Under the pieces are notes generated by a model. The model was not told the DNA's origin. It worked only from the letters and a program-made list of their open reading frames with translations, and made no database searches. Both the position numbers and the translations under genes were made by a program. This document shows, piece after piece, positions 368-50,751 of a stretch of DNA of 53,720 nt; the stretch's first letter is position 1, and every line of letters starts with the position of its first letter. The DNA comes from a virus (lineage: Duplodnaviria; Caudoviricetes), in the IMG/VR virus record IMGVR_UViG_3300025809_000027, positions 1-53,720 of that record. One strand, written 5' to 3'.

Positions 368-488
368 TAACGGTTTGTATATGAAATGTGCGACATTGAA
401 ATAAGAACTAACTAAATAAAAATACATTAATTATGAAATTAAAAATAGAAATCACAAAAAAGGAAAAGCATTTTTTATATACTTTGTT
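368..488. repeat. attC-like hairpin site A
   Basis: TAAC-GGTTT-GTATATGAAATGTGC ... GCATTTTTTATATAC-TTT-GTT; the loop contains ATG 433. Confidence 0.75.
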
Positions 489-648
489 ATGCTTTGTTTT
501 TTTAATATTAAACATGGCTTGCGGTATAATGATAGGTGTGGAAATATTTAAAGACACCAATAGCTTCGGATATAACGCAACCTTAGTATATACAGCTTTA
601 AGTTGCTTTTTCTATTATTATGTAATGTTTCAGCGAAATAAAGCATAA
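433..648 (+). CDS. Small two-TM membrane protein (cassette cargo)
   Basis: Two hydrophobic stretches; its stop TAA is the TAA of the TAAC in site B. Confidence 0.7.
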   Translation: MKLKIEITKKEKHFLYTLLCFVFLILNMACGIMIGVEIFKDTNSFGYNATLVYTALSCFFYYYVMFQRNKA

Positions 649-770
649 CGTTTATGGTATGGTGACGTTGCGACCTTACAGCATGGACTTAATTAATAAA
701 CATAAAACTTTGAGATATGAATAAAGACAATAAGAAAACAGAAACCGAGCAATGCACTATACCAAGTGTT
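646..770. repeat. attC-like hairpin site B
   Basis: TAAC-GTTTA-TGGTATGGTGACGTTGC ... GCAATGCACTATACCA-AGT-GTT; the loop contains ATG 717. Confidence 0.8.
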
Positions 771-998
771 AGCAGTAGTATTTCTCTATGGATGGAAGGA
801 TTCTCTGCTACAGGACAAAGACAAGGTGCAAGTATGATAGGAACTTACCAAGCGAAAAACCTTGATGATGCGGTTAAACAGTATATGGAAACCCATAAGG
901 GCGATGTTGATTGGGATAGGTTTGGCAGAGGCAGACACGCTATTTGGGCTTGTGAAATATTTGATAATGAAAAAGAAGCCCGTAAATCGTTTGGCTAA
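717..998 (+). CDS. Hypothetical protein (cassette cargo)
   Basis: 93 aa ORF; residues EQCTIPSVSSS are encoded by the right arm of site B. Confidence 0.75.
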   Translation: MNKDNKKTETEQCTIPSVSSSISLWMEGFSATGQRQGASMIGTYQAKNLDDAVKQYMETHKGDVDWDRFGRGRHAIWACEIFDNEKEARKSFG

Positions 999-1007
999 TA
1001 TTACTGC

Positions 1008-1046
1008 TAACTACCGTATATGCGTACTAAAAAGTGTCTTAACGGG
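1008..1046. other. Array-terminal half site (putative attI-like landing site)
   Basis: TAACTACCGTATA occurs four times; 1006-1046 is identical to 11596-11636. Confidence 0.6.
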
Positions 1047-1082
1047 CATATATGTCGGGATAATACAACTTTTACAGTATAT

Positions 1083-2222
1083 TTAAAAATCAGGACTCTG
1101 ATCTATAATCATCTTCCGATTCACTTCTTTAACAACAGTCGCATAACGCTTTGTCATCAATTCAGATTGATGCCCGTACAAGTCCCTCAGAGCTTCCAAA
1201 TCAATACCTGCCAAAATTTTCGCATTAGCTCCTGTATGTTTCATGGCGTATAAATTCACATTAATTCCTAAGTCTTTTTTTACCAGAGCATTCCAATTAC
1301 GATTAGAAGTATCACGCTTTAACATTCCAGAAGCAGGCAAAAACTCAATTCTATTACGCCCACGCTTTCCAGTTGGAATGCGTCCAAACAAATAAAAGTC
1401 TTCTGGATATTGACTTAAATCCATAGATTCAAACTCCTTCAGTAAATGGTGATTGATTGGAACTACTCTTTGTTTTTTACGTCCCTTCGTAATGTGAGCA
1501 GGCATTACAATAGTTTGGTTTTGAAGATCAATCATTCCCACTCTTAGCCGTGTCAACTCAACTGGTCTTATTCCTGTATGGAAAAGCGTCACCACAAATC
1601 TGTAAAATCCTAAATGTTTTTTTTGAAGGTGTTTTTTGATTCTCGTTATTTCGTTTGGAGTTGCTGGACGGTTGGCGGTGCTTTCTTGTTCTGGTAGTCT
1701 TTTGATTTTAAAACAAGGGTTGTTTTCAAGTAAATCCCACTGCATAAGCTCCGTGAAGATTGCAGACAAATACCCCAGATTCTTGTTGTAAGCTTTGCTA
1801 GACCAGTTCCTATCTTTTTTCATGCGCTCCATTACGAGCTTCACATGAAGCCGTCTAACGTCTTTAATATAAAGATTTGAAAGTCTTATGTCTTTGATGG
1901 CTTGAATTACAAAGCCTAAAGCATTACTATAATCGTGGAATGTTTTCTTTGCAATAAACTCTTTCTTTTTTTCTAAAGCGAAATTCAGAGCATCGATTAA
2001 AGTGTAATTAACTTCGGTCATGGGATTGTCGCTCGACCATCCAGAGGCTATATTTTTTTTAAAAGATTTAAGAAGTACGTTAGCGGCTGCCTGACGTTTT
2101 TTAAGGTTCTTAATCCTATTAAGGTTCCCTGTAAAGCGTCTTTGCTTCCCGTTAATTGAGAAGTAAACATACCATCTCGAAGATGATTTGCATAATTTCG
2201 GTGTTGTGATGTTTTGACTCAT
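1083..2222 (-). CDS. int: Phage tyrosine integrase 1
   Basis: TGIRPVEL (R), YAMKHTG, LYGHQS...RYA (H, Y) motifs; adjacent to an att region. Confidence 0.92.
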   Translation of the reverse strand: MSQNITTPKLCKSSSRWYVYFSINGKQRRFTGNLNRIKNLKKRQAAANVLLKSFKKNIASGWSSDNPMTEVNYTLIDALNFALEKKKEFIAKKTFHDYSNALGFVIQAIKDIRLSNLYIKDVRRLHVKLVMERMKKDRNWSSKAYNKNLGYLSAIFTELMQWDLLENNPCFKIKRLPEQESTANRPATPNEITRIKKHLQKKHLGFYRFVVTLFHTGIRPVELTRLRVGMIDLQNQTIVMPAHITKGRKKQRVVPINHHLLKEFESMDLSQYPEDFYLFGRIPTGKRGRNRIEFLPASGMLKRDTSNRNWNALVKKDLGINVNLYAMKHTGANAKILAGIDLEALRDLYGHQSELMTKRYATVVKEVNRKMIIDQSPDF

Positions 2223-2262
2223 TTAAATTAAATTAAATGCCTACAAGCGTGTCAATCATCAT

Positions 2263-2469
2263 AACCGTACATATTATGTACAGTTTGGATATAAACCCCT
2301 GATAAACAGGGGTGTATAAACCAAAGCGGAGAGTAAGGGAGTGTCTTTTTTAGAAACTCAAAAACTCAACTGATTGAATTGCAATGTTTTACATTTTGCG
2401 TTAGTATTCGTTTTTTGCTATTTTTGGCGTAATTATGTACAGTTTTTATGTACAGTTTTTATGTACCAG
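2263..2469. other. attP-like region 1: core 2326-2340 flanked by TTATGTACAGTTT arm-type repeats
   Basis: Arm repeats at 2263-2273 (inverted), 2274-2286, 2433-2445, 2446-2458 and 2459-2469 lie on both sides of a tRNA-like core. Confidence 0.75.
2326..2340 (-). other. tRNA 3'-end fragment (tRNA-Ser-like), att core; not a full tRNA
   Basis: The reverse complement TCCCTTACTCTCCGC fits a T-stem 3' strand, acceptor 3' strand and G discriminator. Confidence 0.6.
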
Positions 2470-2471
2470 AT

Positions 2472-2597
2472 TTAAACCATTTTTTTAATTAATGGAATAC
2501 CTTCTTTTAATCCACCAATGGTTATATCCAAGTCTTCAATACGACATCTTAGCTTATCGATTGCTTCGATTAACTCGTTTAATTTTTCTTCATTCAT
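2472..2597 (-). CDS. 41 aa hypothetical protein (not in the ORF track)
   Basis: MNEEKLNELIEAIDKLRCRIEDLDITIGGLKEGIPLIKKMV; preceded by the shared AAAACCCTACTTATT leader. Confidence 0.55.
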   Translation of the reverse strand: MNEEKLNELIEAIDKLRCRIEDLDITIGGLKEGIPLIKKMV

Positions 2598-2657
2598 AAT
2601 AAGTAGGGTTTTAAGGGTTTTTAATTTAGGTTTATGTAGTTATTAAATTTTTTAAGA

Positions 2658-2825
2658 TTAATCTAGCTGACTAGCAATTGCAATCAAAGATCCAATAACA
2701 GAAAGCCAACAAACTATTTGCACCCACGTACTTGTAATAGATGCTGATTTTGATGCTGATTTTAGGTAGCGATAGATTCCTTCCTGTAATTCTCTATCGG
2801 AGAGTTCGGGTATTTTCTTTGTCAT
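2658..2825 (-). CDS. 55 aa protein with a C-terminal TM helix (not in the ORF track)
   Basis: MTKKIPELSDRELQEGIYRYLKSASKSASITSTWVQIVCWLSVIGSLIAIASQLD; has the shared leader. Confidence 0.6.
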   Translation of the reverse strand: MTKKIPELSDRELQEGIYRYLKSASKSASITSTWVQIVCWLSVIGSLIAIASQLD

Positions 2826-2877
2826 AATAGTAGGTTTTAGGTTTATGGTTTAGTTTAAATAGATCGGGGCAAGATTC

Positions 2878-2906
2878 TAAAGTGGTCAAATTCGACCACT
2901 TTAAAA
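2878..2906. repeat. Near-perfect palindrome TAAAGTGGTCAAATTCGACCACTTTAAAA, copy 1
   Basis: Identical 29-mer at 12740-12768. Confidence 0.8.
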
Positions 2907-2919
2907 TCTATGTATGATA

Positions 2920-3402
2920 TTAAAGACAGTAAGTTTTATAACTAACTATTCCAGAAGACGCAATATTAATTTTTCTTGCATAAGTTTTAAAGGTAAAACT
3001 ATAGATGTTTCCATCATAAAGATTTTCTATATAAGCAAATACGCTCCTGTCATAATCATAATTAGTTATCAATTTTACAAATTCATTTTTCTTCACAATA
3101 TCAATAATACCATTTTCTATGTAATGAAACCTCCAAGACTTATCTTTTTGGCTATTTTTCTCTCGGGTGATTAATTCACCTGTATTTCCTTCTTTTGTTT
3201 TTAGGATGTTATTCCCATTGACATCTCTAAAGTAAATACCTAATGTTTTGTTGTTTAAAACGATTGTTACAATTAAAGGGTGCTTGTCTTTATTTAAGTC
3301 TAAGTAATTGCCTTCAGTTTTGTAAATATGTTGTTTTGAGTTGGTTTTTTTTTCGTCTTGATCTGTTAGACTGGTTTCAGTCCATTCGTTTAAATTAATC
3401 AT
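2920..3402 (-). CDS. Hypothetical accessory protein in the immunity region
   Basis: 160 aa ORF co-oriented with the repressor and integrase. Confidence 0.7.
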   Translation of the reverse strand: MINLNEWTETSLTDQDEKKTNSKQHIYKTEGNYLDLNKDKHPLIVTIVLNNKTLGIYFRDVNGNNILKTKEGNTGELITREKNSQKDKSWRFHYIENGIIDIVKKNEFVKLITNYDYDRSVFAYIENLYDGNIYSFTFKTYARKINIASSGIVSYKTYCL

Positions 3403-3423
3403 AATAAGTAGGTTTTAAGGGTT

Positions 3424-3801
3424 TTAAATTATAGGGATTATTAAGTTTTTGTTTTTATCTAGTCTAAGTTCCATGATGCTGAGTCGTGCTTCTTGACCTT
3501 TAATAAGTTGTTCTAAAAGCTCAACTCTTTTTAATAGTAAACTATCAATAGGCGTTTCTTTTGGTTTAACAAGCATCGTTCCTTTGCCTGTTAGAATCCA
3601 TTCATAACTGATCTCGGGGTATCTGTTTGTTATTTTTCTAGCAAGTCCTGCTGAAATTCCATTGCGACCGTTTATGACGTTATCTATCATTGTGCCACTT
3701 GTGTGTCCTATTGACATACCAAAAGCCCTTCTACTCAATTTAGCATGAGATATAATGGCTAGCATTATTTCTGGGAAACTTTTTTCTTCTTGATTTTTCA
3801 T
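3424..3801 (-). CDS. CI-like phage repressor (HTH, no S24 peptidase domain)
   Basis: HTH followed by YPEISYEWILTGKG, typical of Bacteroidetes prophage repressors; divergent from the early operon. Confidence 0.8.
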   Translation of the reverse strand: MKNQEEKSFPEIMLAIISHAKLSRRAFGMSIGHTSGTMIDNVINGRNGISAGLARKITNRYPEISYEWILTGKGTMLVKPKETPIDSLLLKRVELLEQLIKGQEARLSIMELRLDKNKNLIIPII

Positions 3802-4595: not shown

Positions 4596-4850
4596 ATGAC
4601 CGACACCATAACCATACCGACAGAATTACTAAAAGATATAGTTGATGTAAACAATCGACTAGTCGAACATTACAACCGCCTACAAGCGTGTTCAAATCGA
4701 AGTCCCGAAGTTAAGGGGTCGGGAACTTCACTTAAGGGGGGTAAGGATAGACCAAGCCTCCCTTCTAAAAAAGTAATCCTTGAAAACAGAACTAAAAAAT
4801 ACGTAGAAAAAAAACTAAAAGAAATTCAATCTAAAAGAAATTCAATCTAA
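4596..4850 (+). CDS. Hypothetical protein
   Basis: ORF in operon; its 3' end lies within the tandem repeat. Confidence 0.6.
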   Translation: MTDTITIPTELLKDIVDVNNRLVEHYNRLQACSNRSPEVKGSGTSLKGGKDRPSLPSKKVILENRTKKYVEKKLKEIQSKRNSI

Positions 4851-4894
4851 AAGAAATTCAATCTAAAAGAAATTCAATCTAAAAGAAATTCAAT
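4815..4894 (+). repeat. Perfect tandem repeat, 5 x CTAAAAGAAATTCAAT (16 bp)
   Basis: Counted directly. Confidence 0.95.
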
Positions 4895-4920
4895 TATGAA
4901 CCCAAAAAAACCCAACAATT

Positions 4921-5346
4921 ATGAATCCAGAAATTAAACAAAAACTAGAAGAATTAACTGATTTAATATTGAAATCCACCAAAGGAGATCAAAACAATGT
5001 AGATGCTACAATCAAAGGAAATCAATACAATCAAGGTGTTACAATCGGAGGATGGCAAGACAATGTAGATGCTACAATCAAAGGAATTCAAGACAATGTA
5101 GGTGCTACAATCGAAGGAAGTCAAAACAATCAAGGTGTTACAATCGGAGGATGGCAAGACAATGTAGATGCTACAATCAAAGAAAGTCAAGACAATAGAA
5201 GCGCTACAATCAAAGGAAGTCAAAACAATCAAGGTGCTACAATCGAAGGAAAAATGATTATAGATTCCAAAACAAATTTTAAAAAAGGTATTTGGAAAGT
5301 TGAAAAAACAGGGTTGGTTGAATATGAATTAACTCCTAAAAAATAA
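4921..5346 (+). CDS. Protein with 8 x 11-aa repeats (probable beta-solenoid)
   Basis: GxQxNxxATI[KEG] repeated eight times. Confidence 0.75.
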   Translation: MNPEIKQKLEELTDLILKSTKGDQNNVDATIKGNQYNQGVTIGGWQDNVDATIKGIQDNVGATIEGSQNNQGVTIGGWQDNVDATIKESQDNRSATIKGSQNNQGATIEGKMIIDSKTNFKKGIWKVEKTGLVEYELTPKK

Positions 5347-8445: not shown

Positions 8446-8635
8446 TAACGTTACTTGTGTATGATTAGTAGCGAATTATTAAAACTAAAACTTATAAAAA
8501 TGAAAGAAATAAACACACAAATTATCCAAACAGGATTTACACTTGATAGATTGCACCAAGATGGCAAAATAGACAATGAAGCCTACACAATTTTAAAAAA
8601 TAGGAATAAACAAGCTATTAATTATACACGTTGTT
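8446..8635. repeat. attC-like hairpin site C (long loop)
   Basis: TAAC-GTTACTT-GTGTATGATTAGTAGC ... GCTATTAATTATACAC-GTT-GTT; the loop contains ATG 8500. Confidence 0.8.
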
Positions 8636-8799
8636 CTGAGCTTTTGATTTGCCTTGACAATGGTAATTATGAAATGCTAACAAACTATAAATTATACAAG
8701 TTAGTTTCTGAAAGTAAAGGTTATTATAATCTATATGATGATGATGGAAAATTAGTTCAAATGAGCAAAGTTCGCTTCAAAAAAGTAGTGGCAAATTAA
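8500..8799 (+). CDS. Hypothetical protein (cassette cargo); ATG 8500 preferred over GTG 8455
   Basis: A-rich leader before ATG 8500; QAINYTRCS is encoded by the hairpin arm. Confidence 0.7.
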   Translation: MKEINTQIIQTGFTLDRLHQDGKIDNEAYTILKNRNKQAINYTRCSELLICLDNGNYEMLTNYKLYKLVSESKGYYNLYDDDGKLVQMSKVRFKKVVAN

Positions 8800-8963: not shown

Positions 8964-9185
8964 GTGGATGATGTCTTAATAGTCCCTGAGCTTATTAAAT
9001 CATCAAAAGGCAATAGGTACTATATTTTTCGACCCAATGGACAAGAAGTAGCGATAGAGATTAAAAATAATATTCTAGACCCTCAATTCCCTCTCACTCA
9101 AATTGAAAGAGAATTTATTTACAGAAATATACAACCGTTTAAAACGAACAACCCTGAATTATTAAAGATTAAAATAAATGGCTAA
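8964..9185 (+). CDS. Hypothetical protein
   Basis: ORF overlapping the start of the replication gene. Confidence 0.55.
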   Translation: MDDVLIVPELIKSSKGNRYYIFRPNGQEVAIEIKNNILDPQFPLTQIEREFIYRNIQPFKTNNPELLKIKING

Positions 9186-9930
9186 CCGATTAACAAGTAC
9201 CGACAAATATGCAGATTCGTGGTTTATTGAATTAGAAACGATAGAGAAGCTTGTGTTTTATTACTTAATTGACCACGTAGATAATGCAGGCTTTTATGAA
9301 ATATCGATAAGACACATACAATTTCACTTAGGAATTAGTAAGGATGAAATTTTAAGGGCTATAAAGGGGCTGTGTAGGGGTTTATTAGGGGCTGATTCTG
9401 AAATTAAAAACGGAGATAAAATATTTTTAAAGAATTTCTTAAAACACCAGAAGATGCAACCTTTAAACCCTTTTAACTCTTTTCATTCCAATGCTTTAAA
9501 GTCTTTTGAGTTGAATATTGATTTTGTAAATAAACACCCTTTTATTCAAAAATTAAAGGTTTACGGTGAAAAAAAATTAGATGGAAAAGTTGTAAAAACA
9601 ATAGATACAAATTTAATTAATTACATAAATAAAAAACAGGGGCTAGAAAGCCCCTTAGTAGAAGTAGAAGTAAAAGTAGAAGTAGAAGTAAAGGATATTC
9701 CAAATAAAAAAGAGTTTTTAGAATTTGCAAAATTGAAAATTGAAAATATCGACTTGGAAGATGTGGGATTGAAATACGAAGCATGGAAATCTAGTGATTG
9801 GCATACAGGCGGTGAAAAACCTCGAAAGATTAAGAATTGGAAAACAACGCTGTTAAATACTCTGCCGCATTTAAAAAAAACAACCGTAAAAAAAACAGGA
9901 AAACTTAACGCATATAACCCGAACAAATGA
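9178..9930 (+). CDS. Phage replication initiator
   Basis: N-terminal wHTH-like region (DSWFIEL...YLIDHVDNAG), low-complexity linker, C-terminal KIKNWK motif; internal iterons; followed by a loader ATPase. Confidence 0.75.
   Translation: MANRLTSTDKYADSWFIELETIEKLVFYYLIDHVDNAGFYEISIRHIQFHLGISKDEILRAIKGLCRGLLGADSEIKNGDKIFLKNFLKHQKMQPLNPFNSFHSNALKSFELNIDFVNKHPFIQKLKVYGEKKLDGKVVKTIDTNLINYINKKQGLESPLVEVEVKVEVEVKDIPNKKEFLEFAKLKIENIDLEDVGLKYEAWKSSDWHTGGEKPRKIKNWKTTLLNTLPHLKKTTVKKTGKLNAYNPNK
9354..9655. promoter_or_regulatory. Putative replication origin iterons
   Basis: Four AGGGGCT-like repeats at an 11-bp period (9354-9393) and an inverted pair AGGGGCT-AGAA-AGCCCCT (9638-9655). Confidence 0.65.
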
Positions 9931-10704: not shown

Positions 10705-11028
10705 ATGAGCCTAGAAAAAATAACACCAAAAAACACGGAGTACGCAAAGCAGACTTTAAGAAATAGAGGTGATATGTTTAGCGTCTATATTTTAAAGCTA
10801 ATAGAAAGCTTTGAAAACTCGAAAGACAACCCGATCAAAGACAATCGAATAGTGAGCGACCGAACGTTTGCATATCGTTTAAAGTCTCATCTGAAAGATG
10901 TTAGAGCGGAATGTCAGATGGGACAGGAGGAACTCGAATATCTTACAGGGGTTGCAGACAGGCTCTTAGAATATCAAAAACAAACAATGCCAGACGATGA
11001 GAAATGGTTTTTTAAGAATCTTCAGTAA
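10705..11028 (+). CDS. Hypothetical protein
   Basis: ORF whose stop codon is the TAA of site E. Confidence 0.7.
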   Translation: MSLEKITPKNTEYAKQTLRNRGDMFSVYILKLIESFENSKDNPIKDNRIVSDRTFAYRLKSHLKDVRAECQMGQEELEYLTGVADRLLEYQKQTMPDDEKWFFKNLQ

Positions 11029-11116
11029 CGGGTTTGGCTATGATTATGTAGCCTTGAAACACAGAACTTTGAATTAAATATAAACTTTAATAAGGGTATT
11101 AATTATAGCCCTTGTT
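11026..11116. repeat. attC-like hairpin site E
   Basis: TAAC-GGGTTT-GGCTATGATTATGTAGCC ... GGGTATTAATTATAGCC-CTT-GTT. Confidence 0.8.
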
Positions 11117-11132: not shown

Positions 11133-11276
11133 ATGGATTATACAATAACTTATACTTATAAAGACAAAGAAGACACTATACTATTACAAGATACGCAAAA
11201 CATACTCGGAGCAATAGGGCAATTTTACGAAGACCATGTTAGAGAATGTAGAATAATAAAGATTGAAGAATACTAG
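11133..11276 (+). CDS. 47 aa cassette cargo protein (not in the ORF track)
   Basis: MDYTITYTYKDKEDTILLQDTQNILGAIGQFYEDHVRECRIIKIEEY fills the space between sites E and F. Confidence 0.65.
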   Translation: MDYTITYTYKDKEDTILLQDTQNILGAIGQFYEDHVRECRIIKIEEY

Positions 11277-11295
11277 TAATTTTTATTGTGGGTAA

Positions 11296-11480
11296 AACGG
11301 TTTGTGTATGGGTAGGTTTTTGACTTTGAATAATGAACTAAATTGATAGATATGGTACAAGAAATAGAAATGACAAAAGAAGAGCAAATGACAATGTATA
11401 TGAAATGCTCGAAAAAAGAACTGTGTGAAATGCTGATTGAAGCAAATAGGCACTTAAAAAACTTACCTATACACGTTGTT
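11296..11480. repeat. attC-like hairpin site F (long loop)
   Basis: AAC-GGTTT-GTGTATGGGTAGGTTTTT ... AAAAACTTACCTATACAC-GTT-GTT; the loop contains ATG 11352. Confidence 0.8.
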
Positions 11481-11600
11481 ACCCAACAAAGTGAACTGGT
11501 TTGTGATTGTTTGCCAATGAGTACGCAAGTAAGCACTATAAATGGTAGATACATTTGCTGTACTTGTAATAAACCACTCTTATCACAAACTTGTGGCTAA
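11352..11600 (+). CDS. Small Cys-rich (Zn-binding?) cassette cargo protein
   Basis: CDC...CCTC; the stop TAA overlaps the terminal half site. Confidence 0.65.
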   Translation: MVQEIEMTKEEQMTMYMKCSKKELCEMLIEANRHLKNLPIHVVTQQSELVCDCLPMSTQVSTINGRYICCTCNKPLLSQTCG

Positions 11601-11636
11601 CTACCGTATATGCGTACTAAAAAGTGTCTTAACGGG
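11598..11636. other. Array-terminal half site, second copy
   Basis: Identical to 1008-1046. Confidence 0.6.
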
Positions 11637-11752
11637 ATTGTATAAGGAACGTTGCGTTTAGGAAACCAAAAATTAACGATTAGAAATAAAGAAAATTAAT
11701 ATTAACAGACCTTTGGTATAGCACAAATTAGCAATGTTTTTTATACGGTGTT
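11630..11752. repeat. attC-like hairpin site G
   Basis: TAAC-GGGATT-GTATAAGGAACGTTGC ... GCAATGTTTTTTATAC-GGT-GTT. Confidence 0.8.
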
Positions 11753-11803
11753 ACCCACTTTTTAAAAAGCCGTGCGTGAGGTACGAGGGCAAATACACAA
11801 ACT

Positions 11804-12730
11804 ATGGAATTTAAAAAATACCAACATTTAGAGAGATTTGGAACTACAGAAGTTCAAAATATTGTATTAGGGAGAACACATATATTCCCAAAAATTGACG
11901 GAACAAATGCAAGTGTTTGGATTAATGACAAAGGAGAAATACAAGCAGGAAGCAGAAAAAGACATTTAACTTTAGACGCTGATAATGCAGGTTTTTACGC
12001 TTGGGTTAAAGAACAAAATAATTTATTAAAATACTTAACAGAAAATCCAACACATAGACTTTATGGCGAATGGCTTGTACCACATTCTCTTAAAACCTAT
12101 AAAAAAGATGCGTGGCGAAACTTCTACATTTTTGATGTAGCTATTGACAAAGAAGAGTCTGAAATAACACACGAAGGCGATGATAAAATTAAATATTTAC
12201 CTTATGATGAATACAAACCACGACTTGAAGAAAAAGGTTTGAATTTCATTGCACCAATTAGTATAATTACAAATGCAAGTTATGAGCAATTAGTAAATCA
12301 ATTAATGAAAAACGTTTTTTTAATTGAAGATGGTAAAGGAGTTGGAGAAGGTATTGTGATTAAAAACTATGACTTTAAAAATAAATACGGAAGAAATACA
12401 TTTGCTAAAATTGTAACCTCTGAATTTAAAGAAAAACACTCTAAAGTTATGGGTGCCTCTGAAATTAAAGGTAAAAAGATGGTTGAAGAAGAGATTGCGA
12501 AAGAGTTTGTTACAACCGCTTTAGTTGATAAGGTTTACGCTAAAATTGAAAATGAAAGTGGTTTTAATAGTAGAGCAATACCAAGATTATTAAATACTGT
12601 TTTTTATGATGTAGTAAAAGAAGACGCTTGGAACTTTGTTAAGAAGCACAAAAACCCAAGTATAAATTTTAAAACATTACAACACTTTGTTTTTGTAGAA
12701 GTAAAAGAGAAAGCACCGCAATTATTTTAA
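11804..12730 (+). CDS. ATP-dependent RNA ligase (Rnl2-like nucleotidyltransferase)
   Basis: Motif I PKIDGTN, III YGEW, IIIa FDV, IV EGIVIK, V AKIVTSEFKE. Confidence 0.85.
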   Translation: MEFKKYQHLERFGTTEVQNIVLGRTHIFPKIDGTNASVWINDKGEIQAGSRKRHLTLDADNAGFYAWVKEQNNLLKYLTENPTHRLYGEWLVPHSLKTYKKDAWRNFYIFDVAIDKEESEITHEGDDKIKYLPYDEYKPRLEEKGLNFIAPISIITNASYEQLVNQLMKNVFLIEDGKGVGEGIVIKNYDFKNKYGRNTFAKIVTSEFKEKHSKVMGASEIKGKKMVEEEIAKEFVTTALVDKVYAKIENESGFNSRAIPRLLNTVFYDVVKEDAWNFVKKHKNPSINFKTLQHFVFVEVKEKAPQLF

Positions 12731-12739
12731 AGCAATATT

Positions 12740-12768
12740 TAAAGTGGTCAAATTCGACCACTTTAAAA
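12740..12768. repeat. Near-perfect palindrome, copy 2
   Basis: Identical to 2878-2906. Confidence 0.8.
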
Positions 12769-12791
12769 AACTAAAAAAACTAAAAAAAACA

Positions 12792-13112
12792 ATGAACATA
12801 ACAGATAAAATAGAAAAAATAATAGAAGAACTAGAAAAAGAAAAAGGAACAAAACAGGATATTACCTGGCATCAAATAGCTATAAGATTAGCTCAAAATA
12901 CAACAAAATCGTTAACCGCTGATGAATTGATAAAATCGTTAGGTACGCCAGAACTTGAGAATGAATACATACTAAAACCAGATAAGGACGGAACTTGGTG
13001 GATAGAACACAAACACGTTGGAAGTGGCGAACCATTAAAACAATGGTTAACAAATAGAGGAATATGGGAAACTTATCCAGAAGATCCCGCTCCGCAAAGT
13101 CTCCCGACTTAG
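12792..13112 (+). CDS. Hypothetical protein (ATG 12792 preferred over GTG 12744)
   Basis: A-rich leader before ATG; ends just before the half site at 13118. Confidence 0.6.
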   Translation: MNITDKIEKIIEELEKEKGTKQDITWHQIAIRLAQNTTKSLTADELIKSLGTPELENEYILKPDKDGTWWIEHKHVGSGEPLKQWLTNRGIWETYPEDPAPQSLPT

Positions 13113-13117
13113 CGAAG

Positions 13118-13130
13118 TAACTACCGTATA
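13118..13130. other. Array-terminal half site TAACTACCGTATA, third copy
   Basis: Exact 13-mer. Confidence 0.55.
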
Positions 13131-13225
13131 AAAGAGTAAAAATCTTTAAATAATATTCAAAAAAACATCTTATTTATTGGTAATTCCATAAAAGCATTAA
13201 AATACTAAAGTTTTTTCAAATAAAA

Positions 13226-19608: not shown

Positions 19609-19641
19609 CGTGCTTTTCCCGTGCTACTTACGTGCTACTTA
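19609..19641 (+). promoter_or_regulatory. 11-bp-period CGTGCT repeats (putative late activator site 1)
   Basis: CGTGCTTTTCC CGTGCTACTTA CGTGCTACTTA; also at 28242 and 40614. Confidence 0.7.
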
Positions 19642-19707
19642 AAAATGAATACTTACAAAAGGCTATATTTTTGGGTCAATTAAGTATAATTTTTAAAAAA
19701 AGATAAG

Positions 19708-39668: not shown

Positions 39669-40613
39669 ATGGCAGAAAATTTATCAAATATTGTTTATGT
39701 AGATATAAGTGATTTTAGTTGCGGTGGTGATCTTTGCGAACACAAAGAGCGAACCCTGTCATACGCTTTGTTCGTGGACATTCCACAGCAAGCAGAAACG
39801 CCTGACGAAGTTTTTAAGGAGTGTTGTTATTCGCACAAAGTGCTAGCAGACCTAACCAGTACAGAATCGTATAAAAATGATTTTTCTGGTTTTTTCCACA
39901 AACGACAAATATCCTCTGAAACTTGTGATTTTGTAATGGTGGACACGGCAACTAGTACGGAGTACGTTTTAAATGACAGCACTTACGGCACTTACAATGA
40001 TTTCAACTCAATCACAGGACTTCCAGATTTAAAAACATTCAAATTAGACTGGAAAAAAGTACTTCAAGGATTAGGTTCTGGGTCTTATAAAGTTCTAAAA
40101 AGGGTTGTTGTAGTCGGCGTAGCGGTTGATATTGAATACCTTGTTTACAATCTCTACCAGTACTCATCTTCTCTAGCGAACACCACGGCAAGGATAGACG
40201 TGACGATGGATGGTTATTTGGAAAATATTGGAGTGAATTTTGAAGGTTCAGGGTTTGAGACAAGTTTAAGAGTTTCAGGATTTTTTGGAAGACGAAACCC
40301 AAAGTTTGAAGAGGATAATATCGTGAATCGAGATTACGAAAAGAGACAAATTTCCATCAAACAAACTAATGAATACAAGTTTCAAACTAATTTCATCCCT
40401 GTATGTTTAACCTCAGAAATTTTCGACTTTCTATTGATGTCGGACGATATTCGTATTTCAGACTACAATCTAAACAACCATTCATATAGCTATAGATTCA
40501 CCCCCGTTTCAATTGAGGAAAATGGAGAGCCAGTCTATTTGCCACAAACCAGAAAAGCGCAGCTCAATGTGACGTTTTCTGATAAAGTAGTCAATAAGAT
40601 ACGACGGTCTTAA
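39669..40613 (+). CDS. Tail structural protein
   Basis: Position and composition. Confidence 0.55.
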   Translation: MAENLSNIVYVDISDFSCGGDLCEHKERTLSYALFVDIPQQAETPDEVFKECCYSHKVLADLTSTESYKNDFSGFFHKRQISSETCDFVMVDTATSTEYVLNDSTYGTYNDFNSITGLPDLKTFKLDWKKVLQGLGSGSYKVLKRVVVVGVAVDIEYLVYNLYQYSSSLANTTARIDVTMDGYLENIGVNFEGSGFETSLRVSGFFGRRNPKFEEDNIVNRDYEKRQISIKQTNEYKFQTNFIPVCLTSEIFDFLLMSDDIRISDYNLNNHSYSYRFTPVSIEENGEPVYLPQTRKAQLNVTFSDKVVNKIRRS

Positions 40614-40657
40614 TGTGCTACTACCGTGCTTTTCCCGTGCTTTTCCCGTGCTACTTA
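40614..40657 (+). promoter_or_regulatory. 11-bp-period CGTGCT repeats (putative late activator site 3)
   Basis: TGTGCTACTAC, CGTGCTTTTCC x2, CGTGCTACTTA. Confidence 0.7.
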
Positions 40658-40711
40658 AAAAGTCATTTTAGAAATTCCATATATTTTTGAATGAAATAAA
40701 ATCTAAAAAAG

Positions 40712-41179: not shown

Positions 41180-43210
41180 ATGGCATTAGATAACACAACA
41201 TTTACCGCATTAACCTCAGGAACAAGAAATAGTAAAGCAGAAAAAGGTGCTCAATATTTTCTTAATGGTAATACTACAAACGGAAGATTAAATATAGACT
41301 CGTCTGCTATTTGGGAAGTAGGGGATAATACTCATATTCATGTAAACGGAAATCCAAATCATAGTTATATGGAAGGTATAATCAAAGCAACAGGTTTGAC
41401 TTATATAGGAAATCCAACTGGTGGAGGTAGATTAGATTTTTCGGGATCAGATGGAGGACTTCAAACGACAGATTTAACTTATGTTTATTTAGGCAATGGC
41501 AGAATATTTAATCACTTAGAAAATACTAGAAATATCTTTAATGGTTTTACAAGATTTATTATAGATATGACAGGTGGAGATGCTTTTATTCAATTTGCCA
41601 ACAGAGAGTACAAAAATATTCTTTTTAATGTAAAATCATCAAATTTAGGTAGAATAGCTATATATATGGCAAGAAGACACGACCAATATACCTCGCTCCC
41701 GAATTTTGGAACAAGGGGGCTAGGGGATAGTGATATTTTAGAATTAATAGAAGGTGATGGCACAAACTCTCACGGGAGAATATATGACCCTGTATATGAG
41801 GGAGTGACAGATAATCTTTTAAAATTAAAAGTAAGCACAACAGCAGGCGTCGCAAATAATGACTTTGAATATTTTACAATAGATGTGACTGCTATCAGAC
41901 ACGATGATGCAAGAATAAGAGTTGTTTCTGGGGCTTCCATACAAAGACATAACAAAAACTTAACTGTGGCAAATACCACTCTTGATGCATACGGAGGAAC
42001 TCCACTTGATTATTACAGCGGGAAAAATGTAGTAGAGTGTTTAGTTAGAACAATTACAACAACTACATCAAGTACAAGAGAGGTTATTTCTTATGTTATT
42101 CGTAGGGCAGGGTATCAAGAAATAAAAGTAGATAACTTGGCAATGAATGCTCCTGTTATTATTGAAGAAATGATAATGGATACCGACTACTCAAGCACAG
42201 GAACGATAACTCTGTTTTCAAATCTTGATGAGGTATATGACAAATTGGAAGACTGGCTTGTAGATAATCTAGCAACAAACAATTTCGTTTCAAAAGACGG
42301 AGTGGCTCTTGATTTAGCAGGGTATAGTTTGATAGTCGACAAGACAGCAGGCACTCTTTTAGATGTAAATACAACTACTGATACAATCACTATCAAAGCA
42401 GATGATTTAGTAGTAGGCGAGTTCAAAACAATCAAAACAACTGGAACTATATCAACAGCAAACGGAGGCATTATTTCTGTACCTTACGAAGACACCAATG
42501 GTGTGATTGTAAAAGTATCTGCTCCTGCTAACTTCACAATCAAAGGAACAGGAATTGCTTATACTCAAAACACAAACAACATCACAACACAAGTAGCAAG
42601 TGGAACAGTAGTTGAATATGCTATTTGGAGTTTAGGTAAAAAAATCGTGTATGTAACTCAAACAATTAATGAACCAACTACTATAGACATAAATTATGAA
42701 AGTGAAGCTTTTGTAGATACTGGACTTGATGTCTCTGCACAAGTTTCAAATATAGATGCAAGTAATGTAGGAGGAATCCTTACATATAAGTTTGGAGAAA
42801 TGGAGCTTACTCTTGAACAAGCAAAAGCAGTATCTCATAGAATATTTGAAGATGAAATAGCTCTTGATTTAGTTCTGACAAATAACGCAACAGGGGTAGT
42901 GGACTTGTTACAAGATAGTATAAGAATTAATGCACCAGTTGTACACTTGGAAAGAAAAGATGCTCTGACAATATCTCAAGAAGTTAATTTGAGGTCTTAT
43001 ATTGATATAACAAATGCAGTAGCAATAAATCCAGCATATATACTTACTCCTGCTGATACAGATGGATTAAGAGTTATCTACTATAAAGACCCTATTGCTA
43101 TTGATTATGACCAAATAGAAAACAAAGTTTGGAATGGTACAGATGGAACTCTTATAAAAGCACAACAAAAAAATCAATTAACAGAAATTTCTAAAGTCTC
43201 TAATCCATAA
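41180..43210 (+). CDS. Probable tail fibre/spike or receptor-binding protein
   Basis: 676 aa, Thr/Asn/Gly-rich beta composition. Confidence 0.55.
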   Translation: MALDNTTFTALTSGTRNSKAEKGAQYFLNGNTTNGRLNIDSSAIWEVGDNTHIHVNGNPNHSYMEGIIKATGLTYIGNPTGGGRLDFSGSDGGLQTTDLTYVYLGNGRIFNHLENTRNIFNGFTRFIIDMTGGDAFIQFANREYKNILFNVKSSNLGRIAIYMARRHDQYTSLPNFGTRGLGDSDILELIEGDGTNSHGRIYDPVYEGVTDNLLKLKVSTTAGVANNDFEYFTIDVTAIRHDDARIRVVSGASIQRHNKNLTVANTTLDAYGGTPLDYYSGKNVVECLVRTITTTTSSTREVISYVIRRAGYQEIKVDNLAMNAPVIIEEMIMDTDYSSTGTITLFSNLDEVYDKLEDWLVDNLATNNFVSKDGVALDLAGYSLIVDKTAGTLLDVNTTTDTITIKADDLVVGEFKTIKTTGTISTANGGIISVPYEDTNGVIVKVSAPANFTIKGTGIAYTQNTNNITTQVASGTVVEYAIWSLGKKIVYVTQTINEPTTIDINYESEAFVDTGLDVSAQVSNIDASNVGGILTYKFGEMELTLEQAKAVSHRIFEDEIALDLVLTNNATGVVDLLQDSIRINAPVVHLERKDALTISQEVNLRSYIDITNAVAINPAYILTPADTDGLRVIYYKDPIAIDYDQIENKVWNGTDGTLIKAQQKNQLTEISKVSNP

Positions 43211-48087: not shown

Positions 48088-48132
48088 TAACAGTTGCTAA
48101 ACCGCCATTAAAACGGCGTTTAGCTTTGTGTT
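48088..48132. repeat. Short attC-like hairpin site H (opposite orientation to A-G)
   Basis: TAAC-AGTT-GCTAAACCGCCATT-AA-AACGGCGTTTAGC-TTTGT-GTT with one extra base. Confidence 0.8.
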
Positions 48133-48142
48133 GTAAATAATA

Positions 48143-48529: not shown

Positions 48530-48696
48530 TATTGCTCACATTTAAATAGCCACCTTTTGCATTTAGGACATTGTTCTTGTTCGTGCCCTGCGTTTACCAT
48601 GTTAGCAGTCCAGTTATGCAAATCAATATACCTTAATTTTTTAAGGTTATGGTCTGAGCAAGGATTAGTTTTGAGATTTTCAGGTTTTACAGGCAT
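48529..48696 (-). CDS. 55 aa Cys/His protein (not in the ORF track)
   Basis: MPVKPENLKTNPCSDH...QCPKCKRWLFKCEQ; TAATG coupling. Confidence 0.55.
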   Translation of the reverse strand: MPVKPENLKTNPCSDHNLKKLRYIDLHNWTANMVNAGHEQEQCPKCKRWLFKCEQ

Positions 48697-48697
48697 C

Positions 48698-48835
48698 TTA
48701 TTTAGGGTTTAGTTCTGCATACTCTTGTTCAGTTAGTATTACGTACTTGCCACCTTTTAAAATCATTTCTCCTTTTATTTCAAAAGTCATTGTGTTGTCA
48801 TTAAAATCTCCTGTTACTAATTGTGCTTTTATCAT
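48698..48835 (-). CDS. 45 aa hypothetical protein (not in the ORF track)
   Basis: MIKAQLVTGDFNDNTMTFEIKGEMILKGGKYVILTEQEYAELNPK, tightly packed with its neighbours. Confidence 0.55.
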   Translation of the reverse strand: MIKAQLVTGDFNDNTMTFEIKGEMILKGGKYVILTEQEYAELNPK

Positions 48836-48876
48836 TGTTTTTTAGTGTATATAGTATTTATTTGCCTTCATCTTAT

Positions 48877-49086
48877 TTAGGGTTTAGTTTTAAGTGATTC
48901 AATTAATTGGTCAGCAATCCGAACTGCAAATCCTGATGCGTCCTCGTGTATATTAAATCCTCCTGCAAATAATCCTTGCATTGCTTTAGCTGCAAAGTAT
49001 TCTCTTTTAGTCACCCCTAACTCTTGTTCCCATACTCCTTCTTTTTGGCTTATTGGGTGTATGAATTTTGATTCTGTTTTTGCCAT
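48877..49086 (-). CDS. Conserved small phage protein
   Basis: GVTKREYFAAKAMQG motif, widespread in phages. Confidence 0.75.
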   Translation of the reverse strand: MAKTESKFIHPISQKEGVWEQELGVTKREYFAAKAMQGLFAGGFNIHEDASGFAVRIADQLIESLKTKP

Positions 49087-49306: not shown

Positions 49307-49457
49307 AACCTTTGTTTTAAATTATATTTAAATACAAATAATATCATTATTATTAAAGCAAAAATACAAAACATTTAACACATAACAAAATAATATTTAC
49401 ATTAATTTACTAATAATCTCGTTTTATTTTGTATATTTGCTTAAAATAAAGATATAA

Positions 49458-49724
49458 ATGAGCTTATTAAGGTTAAATGAGATATTAGATAAAGATTATA
49501 CAGGCAGGGCGTTGGCTAAAGAATTAGGGGTCACGCCTAATACTGTGAGTAATTGGGTTAAAGGTAAATCAACACCAAGTGGTGACGACTTACTGAGAAT
49601 CGCCAAAGCCCTAGACGTGGATGTAAGAGATCTTTTCCATTCCACGAAAACAAAGGAAGCAGACGATATTTTGAAAAAAGCAATAAATGACTTGCAAGTC
49701 GTTTATTCTAAGATTAAAAAATAA
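49458..49724 (+). CDS. XRE-family HTH regulator, second copy
   Basis: Near-identical to 75-344. Confidence 0.9.
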   Translation: MSLLRLNEILDKDYTGRALAKELGVTPNTVSNWVKGKSTPSGDDLLRIAKALDVDVRDLFHSTKTKEADDILKKAINDLQVVYSKIKK

Positions 49725-49734
49725 AACAACTAAA

Positions 49735-50028
49735 ATGGAATTAATACACACATACAGAGGTGCTAGAGAATTAAAGCATATACGGTTTGGTTTTGATGAC
49801 GAGAAAGAATTTATAAATAGATTTAACTTATCAATTATAACTGCAAAAAAACTTTGCAACTATTTAGAAAAAAATAACAAAGTTGTAGACATGACGGAAA
49901 GCTATGACCCGCAATCTGGTTGGAGTGGCTTTAACTTCATCATAGGAGACCAAGACCTTTCTGTGAATGGTTTTTGCTTTAGTCCTGAACGGGTGGATAG
50001 TTTTTTAATAAAGAATAAAGATAACTAA
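49735..50028 (+). CDS. Hypothetical protein (ATG 49735 preferred)
   Basis: A-rich leader; avoids overlap with the HTH gene. Confidence 0.65.
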   Translation: MELIHTYRGARELKHIRFGFDDEKEFINRFNLSIITAKKLCNYLEKNNKVVDMTESYDPQSGWSGFNFIIGDQDLSVNGFCFSPERVDSFLIKNKDN

Positions 50029-50035
50029 AAAACAA

Positions 50036-50230
50036 ATGAGCATTATAACCCTAGAAGGCAAGGCGTATGAAGTAAGCGAAGCACATCTTAAAATGCTACT
50101 CGATAAACAGAAACAAATTAATGATAAGCCATACTATCACGGAAGCGATGTTGAAATGGACGGCTTTATAAATACGCTAAAGCCATCATTCAAATGCCTT
50201 GGTTATATTGAATTTGACTTTAGACTTTAA
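50036..50230 (+). CDS. Hypothetical protein
   Basis: Ends 2 nt before site J. Confidence 0.6.
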   Translation: MSIITLEGKAYEVSEAHLKMLLDKQKQINDKPYYHGSDVEMDGFINTLKPSFKCLGYIEFDFRL

Positions 50231-50232
50231 GA

Positions 50233-50291
50233 TAACGGACTTGGGTATGAATAAGCGATAGCGACCCGTAGGGTTATTTATACCCTGTGTT
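50233..50291. repeat. attC-like hairpin site J
   Basis: TAAC-GGACTT-GGGTATGAATAAGC ... GTTATTTATACCC-TGT-GTT. Confidence 0.8.
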
Positions 50292-50326
50292 AGCCATCTG
50301 GTGCGGATTTTAAATGAAATATTGAA

Positions 50327-50728
50327 ATGAAAGACTTAACTGATAAAGAATTTTTTGAAGTCCCTAATAAGGTGCAGTATATCTATATGATGGGTATGAT
50401 GAAGCAGCCCATTGGCTCAAGCACTTATGAAAAAGCTATCAAAGAACATCCTGAATACTTTCCTGATGAAGTTGAACATAGAAAAAAATGGGCTGCGATA
50501 CCGCAAGAAGTACACGATAAATACTGGGAAGAATATTGGAAGATTGAAGAAGAAGTAATGAAAGATGTATCACCAAGCAAAGGTATTATGGGTTGGATAG
50601 ATGACCAAGAAGGATATAGCGAATGGAATAAGAAATGGACTGAAGCAAACGAAAAAGCTAAACCTTTGCGTGAAGCATTACACAAAAAATTCTATTCCGA
50701 ATATGGTATTGAATGGAACGGCTGGTAG
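50327..50728 (+). CDS. Hypothetical protein (cassette cargo)
   Basis: Bounded by GTTAGC...GTGC and GCAC...GCTAAC. Confidence 0.75.
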   Translation: MKDLTDKEFFEVPNKVQYIYMMGMMKQPIGSSTYEKAIKEHPEYFPDEVEHRKKWAAIPQEVHDKYWEEYWKIEEEVMKDVSPSKGIMGWIDDQEGYSEWNKKWTEANEKAKPLREALHKKFYSEYGIEWNGW

Positions 50729-50738
50729 CACTTGTTGC

Positions 50739-50751
50739 TAACTACCGTATA
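50739..50751. other. Array-terminal half site TAACTACCGTATA, fourth copy
   Basis: Exact 13-mer at the position homologous to 1008. Confidence 0.6.

Follow-up and report, generated by a model that had tools for sequence, protein, structure and literature searches.

Our analysis indicates that this marine flavobacterial phage keeps several small accessory genes as swappable cassettes, bounded by folded DNA sites which look and behave like the attC sites of integrons. The sites belong to a cassette system that is shared by Flavobacteriaceae and their phages and that appears to use a simpler recombinase than classical integrons, and we hold this explanation with good, although not complete, confidence. 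The observation in the original prediction, hairpins closed by AAC...GTT with complementary ends of the intervening segments, was confirmed for nine of the ten sites it listed. Its interpretation, an integrase-less set of attC-type cassettes spread over five loci and probably served by a host IntI in trans, is only partly supported.

Folded sites and cassette ends

We examined the whole 53,720-nt stretch of the viral record IMGVR_UViG_3300025809_000027 (hereafter the window). Nine sites fold as AAC-spacer-GTATATG...stem/loop...CATATAC-spacer-GTT and share one layout, whereas the tenth is only a stem of about 7 bp (Table 1). The 5' spacer (4-6 nt) is always longer than the 3' spacer (2-4 nt). 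The arms are site-specific: each 5' arm pairs with its own 3' arm at a mean of 13 of 16 positions, compared to 7.6 of 16 for the 72 cross-pairings. The original prediction counted five loci, but there are four, since loci 1 and 5 are two diverged copies (A and B) of the same region: positions 1-340 correspond to 49384-49723 (95%) and positions 1005-1184 to 50736-50915 (87%). It also missed the half-sites at 1006, 11596, 50737 and 13117, as well as two tyrosine integrase genes, so that the window is not literally integrase-less.

Table 1. Features of the cassette system in the window (hairpin coordinates run from the AAC to the GTT).
Position	Strand	Feature	Properties
369-488	+	attC-like hairpin 1	TAAC-GGTTT-GTATATGAAATGTGC ... 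GCATTTTTTATATAC-TTT-GTTA; stem score 13; loop holds the start of ORF 433-648
433-648	+	Cassette cargo ORF, 71 aa	No Pfam family; complementary cassette ends GTTATGCTTT / AAAGCATAAC
647-770	+	attC-like hairpin 2 ("646-type")	83% identical to a site in Polaribacter phages Freya_2-10, also in four other records; loop and 3' arm encode the leader MN..EQCTIPSVSSS
717-998	+	Cassette cargo ORF, 93 aa	No Pfam family; ends GTTAGCAGTAGTATT / AATATTACTGCTAAC
1006-1046	+	Array-terminal half-site GCTAAC|TACCGTATATG...	41-nt segment ending in TTAACGGG, 74 nt from the integrase stop codon; homology with copy B starts here
1083-2222	-	Tyrosine integrase A, 379 aa	Not IntI; relatives not linked to AAC sites or hairpins
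8447-8635	+	attC-like hairpin 3	Arms TGTGTATGATTAGTAGC / GCTATTAATTATACACG; stem score 17; same arm type in P12002L and in host arrays L042 and L044, there with a compensatory A-T to G-C change
8455-8799	+	Cassette cargo ORF (ATG at 8501)	No Pfam family; starts inside the hairpin loop
8808-8851	+	Short attC-like hairpin 4	AAC-ACCC-GTATAAA ... TTTATAC-TAA-GTT; followed by a run of T
11027-11116	+	attC-like hairpin 5	Stem score 11
11133-11276	+	Cassette cargo ORF, 47 aa	No Pfam family
11296-11480	+	attC-like hairpin 6	19-bp stem, stem score 19; 3' arm inside ORF 11343-11600
11343-11600	+	Cassette cargo ORF, 85 aa	No Pfam family
11596-11636	+	Second copy of the 41-nt segment GCTAAC|TACCGTATATG...TTAACGGG	Identical to 1006-1046; homology ends at the AAC sites on both sides
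11631-11752	+	attC-like hairpin 7	Stem score 16
11804-13112	+	Two-gene cargo	RNA-ligase family protein (PF09414; 85% DNA identity to Cellulophaga phage phi19:3) and a 122-aa ORF
13117-13135	+	Half-site GTAAC|TACCGTATAAAAG	Closes the ligase cassette
48089-48132	+	attC-like hairpin 8	Variant inner box GCTAAAC instead of GTATA, also seen in P12002L and L011
48239-48270	+	"Decayed" site of the original prediction	Weak stem inside an ORF of the other strand; not supported
50234-50291	+	attC-like hairpin 9 (copy B)	Stem score 12
50327-50728	+	Cassette cargo ORF, 133 aa	No Pfam family
50737-50777	+	Third, diverged copy of the terminal half-site GCTAAC|TACCGTATATG	
50917-52122	-	Tyrosine integrase B, 401 aa	Not IntI; behind a remnant of the 3' end of integrase A (50814-50915)

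One would argue that such sites are chance palindromes in AT-rich intergenic DNA, and under loose criteria (AAC...GTT, 10-bp stem, one mismatch) we indeed obtained 33 hits against about 35 in shuffled sequence. However, when a stem score of at least 13 and TAT within the first 7 stem bases were required, 4 hairpins were found on the plus strand and none on the minus strand, while 100 dinucleotide-type shuffles gave a mean of 0.11 and a maximum of 2. At a score of at least 12 the count was 5, against a mean of 0.30 and a maximum of 3. A stricter form of the scanner, which also requires the 5' spacer to be the longer one, found no site in 223,575 bases of unrelated phage loci. Additionally, all the sites are on one strand and one of them is 83% identical to a site in unrelated phages. 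The chance explanation is thereby rejected.

The ends of the cassettes are complementary, most clearly at 486/649 (exact run of 10 nt, 15 of 20 positions), 768/1011 (run of 10 nt, 15 of 20) and 8633/8810 (15 of 20). The other four of the seven cassettes show only weak complementarity (5-11 of 20; in the case with 5 of 20, 11630->13119, the AAC end was set one base off). The pair 48130/48225 gives 13 of 17 by our reading and lies inside an ORF of the other strand.

Cassette boundaries in related phages

The original prediction proposed that indel boundaries in related phages should coincide with AA|C, and this test was passed in relatives that carry the same site family. In near-identical Polaribacter phage isolates (Freya_1,2,5,6,8,9 compared to Freya_10, and Danklef_2-4 compared to Danklef_1/5) all 8 junctions from 7 indel events fall directly after YAAC. 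Longer microhomologies lie a few bases upstream (TTGTT at junction a/d, AATTGTT at b/d) and were not used. In the comparison of P12002L and P12002S 5 of 8 block boundaries are at AAC (+0-2 nt), 2 are inside the site and 1 is elsewhere; one junction lies in the inner box rather than at AA|C. A cassette shared by Freya and a 131-kb viral contig (L012) is bounded by AAC on both sides of the homology, and the 646-type site occurs with 4 different cargos in 6 records.

The data for the window itself are weaker. No recombination was observed for it, and of its own 8 homology boundaries only 3 are at AAC. Homology between copies A and B resumes at TGCTAAC, and the 41-nt segment recurs at 1006 and 11596 and ends at AAC sites on both sides. 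Contrastingly, the left boundary of copies A and B is at the end of the HTH gene, the two boundaries with the relative L003 are at a gene start and 14 nt past an AAC, and the ligase gene shared with phi19:3 ends at its ORF borders, phi19:3 having no such hairpin there.

It could also be that the hairpins are regulatory elements (promoter, terminator or RNA-processing stem-loops in front of early genes) and that cassette shuffling is a by-product of homologous or microhomology-driven recombination between these repeats, as proposed for the PeSL motifs of T4-type phages (PMC2839356, PMC4122927). In agreement with this, the sites lie in front of genes on the coding strand, their loops carry a recurring ACTTTGAAT-like motif and the start codon, and site 8808 has a T run behind it. 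However, junctions fall on the 3-nt AAC even where microhomologies of 5-7 nt lie a few bases away. Arms of different sites are unrelated beyond the inner box (5'-arm identity 2.8 of 9), which leaves too little identity for homologous recombination, and regulation does not require complementary cassette ends. Moreover, in host arrays the same sites lie behind the genes, in the opposite orientation, and these arrays are headed by a recombinase gene and a conserved AAC half-site. Thus the regulatory explanation is unlikely.

Still less likely is that each hairpin is itself a small non-autonomous mobile element (MITE-like, with TAACGG.../...CCGTTA terminal inverted repeats) inserted between genes that are not mobile units. 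The conservation of the 646-type element in six records (mean column identity 84%), with different sequence on either side, speaks for this notion. On the other hand, no target-site duplication is seen at any junction, the natural indels remove or add everything from one AAC to the next, genes included, complementarity extends from the GTT side of the hairpin to the far end of the gene, and no transposase is associated with the sites.

Candidate recombinases

Neither of the two tyrosine integrases of the window is IntI, and the integrase A family shows no link to such sites. P12002L and P12002S have no annotated integrase and Danklef has only a 43-aa remnant. A profile search with the IntI model TIGR02249 gave no score above its cut-off in 301 sampled Flavobacteriaceae genomes, nor in any of the phages. 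Therefore, the part of the original prediction that named a host IntI was not supported, although a host-encoded recombinase acting in trans remains the best candidate.

We have an indication of what this enzyme may be. Contig C34 of a Flavobacteriaceae MAG holds efflux genes, then a 398-aa Xer/IntI-like recombinase (XerA_Arch 203 bits, IntI model 174 bits in two stretches), then cassettes whose hairpins are 90% and 83% identical to one in a phage contig of the same metagenome bin, although the two contigs may not come from one organism. The recombinase lacks the IntI-specific insertion (profile positions 181-242 are skipped). A match to it at E<=1e-60 was found in 94 of 151 genomes sampled, and many of these genes lie at contig ends, as if the arrays break assemblies. 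A conserved AAC|TTGTTTATAT site lies 93-152 nt past its stop codon in 13 of 16 loci; canonical hairpins follow in 5 of 16 loci, and 3 further loci lack flank. The window arms TAGTAGC/GCTATTA correspond to TAGTGGC/GCCATTA in the host arrays, which is a compensatory change.

Relation to known systems and interpretation

The closest known systems are integrons and clusters of attC sites lacking an integrase (CALINs), which have been published for virulent phages including Polaribacter phage P12002L (Qi et al., 2023, PMC9892861). They share with the present sites the outer AAC/GTT boxes, the unpaired spacer, the inner boxes and variable stem-loop, the cassette boundary at G|TT (AA|C on the other strand), the complementary ends, and arrays of small orphan genes and methyltransferases. 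According to Qi et al., IntI1 recombined P12002L_attC2 with attI1 in E. coli. That paper reports 2 sites in P12002L, while we count at least 10 of the architecture described here. The present system differs in the absence of canonical IntI from the genomes and phages searched; in phages the site precedes the gene and often encodes its start, the reverse of a classical cassette, and several 3' arms lie inside coding sequence. The outer stems are 10-15 bp, compared to 7 bp in classical attC, and the sites are 44-190 nt long, or up to about 345 nt where a site encloses a whole ORF. The host platform has the recombinase upstream of and co-directional with the array, not divergent. Part of the idea is thus in print, but we did not find this platform, its reversed gene orientation or the isolate polymorphism in the literature.

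As in sedentary chromosomal integrons with host-specific attC families, such as the Vibrio VCRs, one site family recurs with unrelated cargo genes; here, however, the recombinase lacks the IntI-specific insertion and the site family is shared with lytic and temperate phages. Archaeal integrons have XerA-like integrases (Ghaly et al., 2022, PMC9668308), and the best NCBIfam model for both the host recombinase (203 bits) and the Freya integrase (146 bits) is NF040815, "site-specific tyrosine recombinase/integron integrase". Both scores are below its cut-off of 220 and the hosts are bacteria. PeSL cassettes likewise consist of stem-loop motifs that flank small variable genes in phage hyperplastic regions and mark indel boundaries between close relatives, but they are said to act through homology between repeated promoter-terminator motifs, whereas here the arms differ between sites and the junction is a fixed 3-nt point. 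The action of a Xer-type recombinase on a hairpin of single-stranded DNA is an established mechanism in CTX phage, although we showed no likeness of the present sites to a dif site, and the result here is cassette exchange rather than integration of a genome.

Our data demonstrate the anatomy of the sites, their excess over chance, the precise gain and loss of cassettes at YAAC in natural phage isolates, the presence of the same cassette in unrelated phages with homology ending at AAC on both sides, and the same site family behind a conserved recombinase gene and AAC|TTGTTTATAT site in Flavobacteriaceae genomes. The mechanism, in contrast, is inferred: a tyrosine recombinase would bind the folded, probably single-stranded, site and exchange strands at AA|C, as IntI does at attC, and the loop would supply expression signals. 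In this phage the enzyme is somewhat more likely than not the Xer/IntI-like recombinase of the host, acting in trans during infection or lysogeny; the phage's own integrase is an unlikely alternative, and another enzyme is also possible.

In this view, a cassette on the coding strand runs from the C of one YAA|C to the AA of the next. It begins with the folded site, with its inner GTATAxG/CxTATAC box and site-specific stem and loop, and then carries one or two genes, whose start codon and first codons often lie in the loop and 3' arm. The first bases after GTT pair with the last bases before the next AAC, as expected if the cassette once closed into a circle across AA|C. The AAC...GTT hairpins are most likely recombination sites of an integron-like cassette system shared by Flavobacteriaceae and their phages.

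Hairpin sites of the window

The window, a whole IMG/VR virus record of 53,720 bases with about 35% G+C, encodes a large terminase, a portal protein and a tape-measure protein. Its two ends are diverged copies of one region, and the first and fifth of the five cassette loci claimed by the original prediction are therefore two variants (A and B) of the same locus, which leaves four loci. Different cassettes and different integrases lie between the homologous blocks; these ends are either two strain variants joined by the assembler going round a circular or permuted genome, or a tandem pair of related prophages. Each variant carries a tyrosine integrase, the two being only 26% identical to each other, and variant B keeps a remnant of the 3' end of integrase A. 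The coordinates of these and the other features are collected in the table.

The observation that the original prediction started from, a set of ten AAC...GTT hairpins, is confirmed: nine of the ten sites indeed fold into one layout, while the tenth is a weak stem inside an ORF. The layout is composed of [T/C]AAC, a spacer of 4-6 nt, an inner box of GTATAxG type, a site-specific stem, a loop of about 10 to 150 nt, the complementary stem and inner box, a spacer of 2-4 nt and GTT. These nine sites thus show the anatomy of attC, an imperfect palindrome with a variable centre. Loose hairpin criteria do not distinguish the window from its shuffled versions (33 hits against about 35), and only the stricter layout does: with a stem score of at least 13 and TAT at the start of the stem there are 4 such hairpins on the plus strand and none on the minus strand, whereas 100 shuffles gave a mean of 0.11 and a maximum of 2. 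A stricter form of the scanner, which also requires the longer 5' spacer, found none in 223,575 bases around 45 unrelated phage integrase genes. Own arms pair at 13 of 16 positions and foreign arms at 7.6 of 16, therefore the palindromy is kept although the sequences differ. A search of Rfam at gathering score gave 0 matches and a tRNA scan gave 0 genes, but neither helps with attC; the attC covariance model is not in Rfam. By anatomy there are 2-4 sites per locus and no IntI, although the formal definition of a CALIN (two or more attC sites within a few kb and no IntI) rests on that model.

The two ends of a cassette are complementary, the bases after GTT to those before the next AAC, as the original prediction had claimed. 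There are 10-nt exact runs in two cassettes and 15 of 20 matching positions in three cassettes of seven; the four others are weaker. The same complementarity is seen in the Polaribacter phage Freya, in records L011 and L013 and in the host arrays. The cargo genes have no Pfam family, except an RNA-ligase family gene. In the phages the site precedes the gene, which is the reverse of the classical arrangement, and in several sites the loop holds the start codon of the following ORF while the 3' arm lies in its coding sequence. The 646-type site encodes a conserved leader peptide (MN..K..EQCTIPSVSSS) that is fused to four unrelated C-terminal parts in different records; in L012, a 131-kb viral contig, the leader carries an in-frame TAG and a GTG in place of the ATG. 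The six sequences aligned for this site type are too alike to show covariation, and loop lengths of 20-300 nt align poorly; one compensated pair was seen by eye in record L014. In record L013 a site has its two arms about 290 nt apart and encloses a whole small ORF in its loop, and a second site on the same contig does the same.

Other repeats of the window are listed in the table as well. The motif at three gene-block borders of the structural region may be a late promoter or terminator signal, and the motif next to the starts of minus-strand genes may be an expression signal of the leftward (lysogeny-side) genes. The very high contig depth at the GAAGTA-type repeat is probably a low-complexity match to many organisms. 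Cellulophaga phage phi19:3 has its own repeated intergenic motif in front of small genes, which is a different repeat family from the AAC...GTT sites.

Coordinates of features in the window and in the compared records
Record	Position (strand)	Feature	Remark
Window	1-3663 and 49384-53720	Two diverged ends of the record	Variants A and B of one region
Window	1-340 = 49384-49723	Homologous block	95% identical
Window	1005-1184 = 50736-50915	Homologous block	87% identical
Window	3485-3663 = 53542-53720	Homologous block	92% identical
Window	1083-2222 (-)	Tyrosine integrase of variant A (integrase A)	379 aa
Window	50917-52122 (-)	Tyrosine integrase of variant B	401 aa
Window	1006	Site near integrase A	74 nt from the stop codon of integrase A
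Window	1006 and 11596	Recurring segment	41 nt
Window	647-779	Hairpin site	83% identical to a site in Polaribacter phages Freya_2 to Freya_10
Window	647-790	646-type site with leader peptide	Also in L011, L012, L013 and L014
L006	48075-48215	646-type site with leader peptide
Window	8447	Hairpin site	Arms shared with two host sites
Window	48239	Weak stem	Inside an ORF
L013 = G001:C51	6010-6335 (-) = 21991-22335	Site enclosing a whole small ORF	Arms about 290 nt apart
G001:C51	20711-21047	Second site of this kind
Window	4812-4908	Tandem array of 16-nt units, about 6 copies	Just upstream of ORF 4921-5346; length variant in metagenome contigs (joint 4830->4906)
Window	4949-5278	Tandem array of 33-nt units, 7 or more copies	Inside ORF 4921-5346; length variants in metagenome contigs (joints 4978->5076/5208)
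Window	19602-19645, 28235-28278, 40607-40661	Repeated motif CGTGCTTTTCCCGTGCTACTTAAAAA	Three gene-block borders in the structural region
Window	2594-2653, 2824-2871, 3399-3435, 48681-48890, 53394-53455	Recurring motif TAGGGTTT(T)A(A)GG(G)TTT	Next to starts of minus-strand genes
Window	9657-9690	GAAGTA-type simple repeat	Inside ORF 9178-9930; very high contig depth in all four marine runs (bin 9451-9900)
Window	8478->8612	Joint in Logan contigs of runs X4 and X5	Sides of 22 letters
Window	5356->11679	Joint in Logan contigs	28 letters between
Window	451-900	Low cover	Runs X4 and X5
Window	11251-12600	Low cover	Run X5
L027 (Danklef_1)	41360-41491	Integrase remnant, 43 aa	Same place in Danklef_2-5
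L025 (phi19:3)	about 1640-1700 and 2090-2150	Repeated intergenic motif AAATATCGCATATCGCAATACGGAATAAATTAAAATTAATGTTAACCC	In front of small genes

Cassette boundaries in related phages

The original prediction had proposed that indel boundaries in related phages should fall exactly at AA|C, and we examined this in the phages that carry the same sites. In integrons the cassette boundary lies at G|TT, which is AA|C on the other strand. The Polaribacter phages Freya show the same cassette layout as the window, and the isolates are otherwise 99.9-100% identical but differ in an array that ends 46 nt upstream of a 271-aa integrase. Freya_10 has four sites there, a to d: Freya_2 joins a to d, Freya_5 joins b to d, Freya_8 joins a to b, Freya_9 joins c to d, Freya_6 has a different two-ORF insert between b and d, and Freya_1 joins a site one cassette further upstream to d. 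In the phage Danklef a methylase cassette is present in isolates 1 and 5 and absent in isolates 2-4. All 8 junctions of these 7 events lie directly after YAAC, and microhomologies of 5 and 7 nt a few bases upstream were not used, which argues for a fixed cleavage point rather than homology. One could argue that the sites are regulatory cassettes of the PeSL type, for which repeats alike enough for homologous recombination and junctions anywhere within the shared motif are expected. However, the arms are unrelated beyond the inner box and the junctions are fixed at AAC despite the longer microhomology nearby. A MITE-like element, which would have terminal inverted repeats with a target-site duplication and move alone, does not fit either, since no duplication was found at any junction and the indels include the genes.

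The other comparisons are less uniform. P12002L and P12002S have no annotated integrase, and of their 8 block boundaries 5 are at AAC (+0-2 nt), 2 lie inside the site at the inner box and 1 lies elsewhere. A cassette shared by Freya and L012 is bounded by AAC on both sides (2 of 2). Contrastingly, only 3 of 8 boundaries are at AAC in the window's own comparisons: the right boundary of copies A/B and both ends of the recurring 41-nt segment are, while the left boundary of copies A/B, both boundaries with the mosaic relative L003 and both ends of the ligase gene shared with phi19:3 are not, and these were counted as misses. Logan contigs of four marine runs (X2-X5) gave no readable junctions; the joints listed there are not at AAC sites, and neither these joints nor the low cover over parts of the window support or refute cassette exchange.

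Recombinases of the phages and of the host family

The original prediction regarded the system as integrase-less and inferred that it probably uses a host IntI in trans. The window does carry integrases, but they score only 39-48 bits on the IntI model TIGR02249, whose cut-off is 265 bits. We had initially read the geometry of the site at 1006 as platform-like and considered integrase A as a dedicated cassette integrase. A single-protein query of viral contigs found no relatives of it, whereas a profile query found 45 loci with relatives at 33-51% identity; of these, 1 of 45 has an AAC-N4-6-TATA motif 3' of the gene and 0 of 45 has a canonical hairpin. Therefore we dropped this idea and read integrase A as an ordinary phage integrase. 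The Freya integrase is Xer-like, with 146 bits on the XerA_Arch model and 96.5 bits on the IntI model. Danklef keeps only a remnant of it, in which homology to the Freya integrase gene begins only at nucleotide 400 of that gene, so these phages probably cannot integrate by it. The contig L012, which is 86% complete, shows no hit to the IntI model at E<=0.001. The one common factor is the host family.

A pattern derived from the 646-type site hit a Flavobacteriaceae metagenome bin, one contig of which is a phage with an array of at least 6 sites. Another contig of the bin, C34, holds AcrB-type and outer-membrane efflux genes followed by a 398-aa tyrosine recombinase, which scores 203 bits on XerA_Arch (cut-off 220) and 174 bits on the IntI model, the latter in two stretches that skip the IntI-specific part (profile positions 181-242), and is 33% identical to the Freya integrase. 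Cassettes follow it, with hairpins 90% and 83% identical to one in the phage contig. In the host arrays the genes precede the sites, as in classical integrons, but the recombinase is co-directional with them instead of divergent. The recombinase has a match at E<=1e-60 in 94 of 151 sampled genomes of the family, mostly once per genome. Many copies lie 100-500 nt from a contig end with the 3' end facing outwards, as expected if a repeat-rich array behind the gene breaks short-read assemblies. In 13 of 16 loci the motif YAAC|TTGTTTATAT lies 93-152 nt past its stop codon, and canonical hairpins follow within 1.5 kb in 5 of 16 loci, three further loci lacking flank. Two host sites share the arms of the window site at 8447, with a compensatory A-T to G-C change. 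The IntI model passed its cut-off in 0 of 301 sampled Flavobacteriaceae genomes.

Relation to known integrons and significance

Qi et al. 2023 (PMC9892861) screened 10,705 phage genomes and found 17 attC clusters without an integrase, among them two sites in P12002L, one of which (P12002L_attC2) was shown to be recombined with attI1 by IntI1. Our scan finds at least 10 sites of the present architecture on the early-gene strand of P12002L, and the published ones are very likely of this family. The paper that describes Freya and Danklef, its supplement left aside, has no occurrence of cassette, hairpin, integron or variable region, and literature searches for a flavobacterial or Bacteroidota integron-like platform listed no paper that describes it. 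Clusters of attC sites in phages are already known, whereas the sites described here precede their genes in the phages, and the same site family is found in the host family behind a Xer/IntI-like recombinase that scores below the cut-off of the IntI model.

The interpretation of the original prediction is partly supported: it is right in its core, that these are attC-type mobile cassettes probably served by a host enzyme, but wrong in details, as the window is not integrase-less, the enzyme, as far as the 301 sampled genomes show, is not IntI and there are four loci rather than five. While the hairpins themselves are confirmed by the analysis, the recombination of the sites by the host enzyme, the identity of this enzyme, the single-stranded substrate and the role of the loops in expression are inferred. 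It could be, and we regard it as about as likely as not, that Flavobacteriaceae and their phages, lytic ones included, run a second, IntI-independent integron-type gene-capture system. In this view a single-copy Xer/IntI-like host recombinase with its own AAC|TTGTTTATAT docking site would serve chromosomal arrays and, in trans, would also swap the early accessory genes of infecting phages. In the phages the site would be turned round, so that it delivers the promoter, the start codon and a short leader peptide to whatever cargo is captured, and host and phage would then draw on one cassette pool during blooms.

Integrons are the textbook gene-capture machines of bacteria and are thought to be nearly absent from Bacteroidetes, where only In0 elements and one complete integron, in Salinibacter ruber, were reported in the IntegronFinder 2.0 paper (PMC9024848). 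The system is directly testable, because the Freya and Danklef phages and their Polaribacter hosts are in culture (PMC8776804); in this North Sea system the host of Freya is Polaribacter sp. HaHaR_3_91 and that of Danklef is R2A056_3_33. A working analogue with a simpler recombinase would widen the definition of an integron. It would explain how flavobacterial phages turn over their small orphan and methyltransferase genes within a single bloom season, since isolates from one host and site differ only by whole cassettes, and it would open a route of gene flow between phage and host that standard integron surveys miss.
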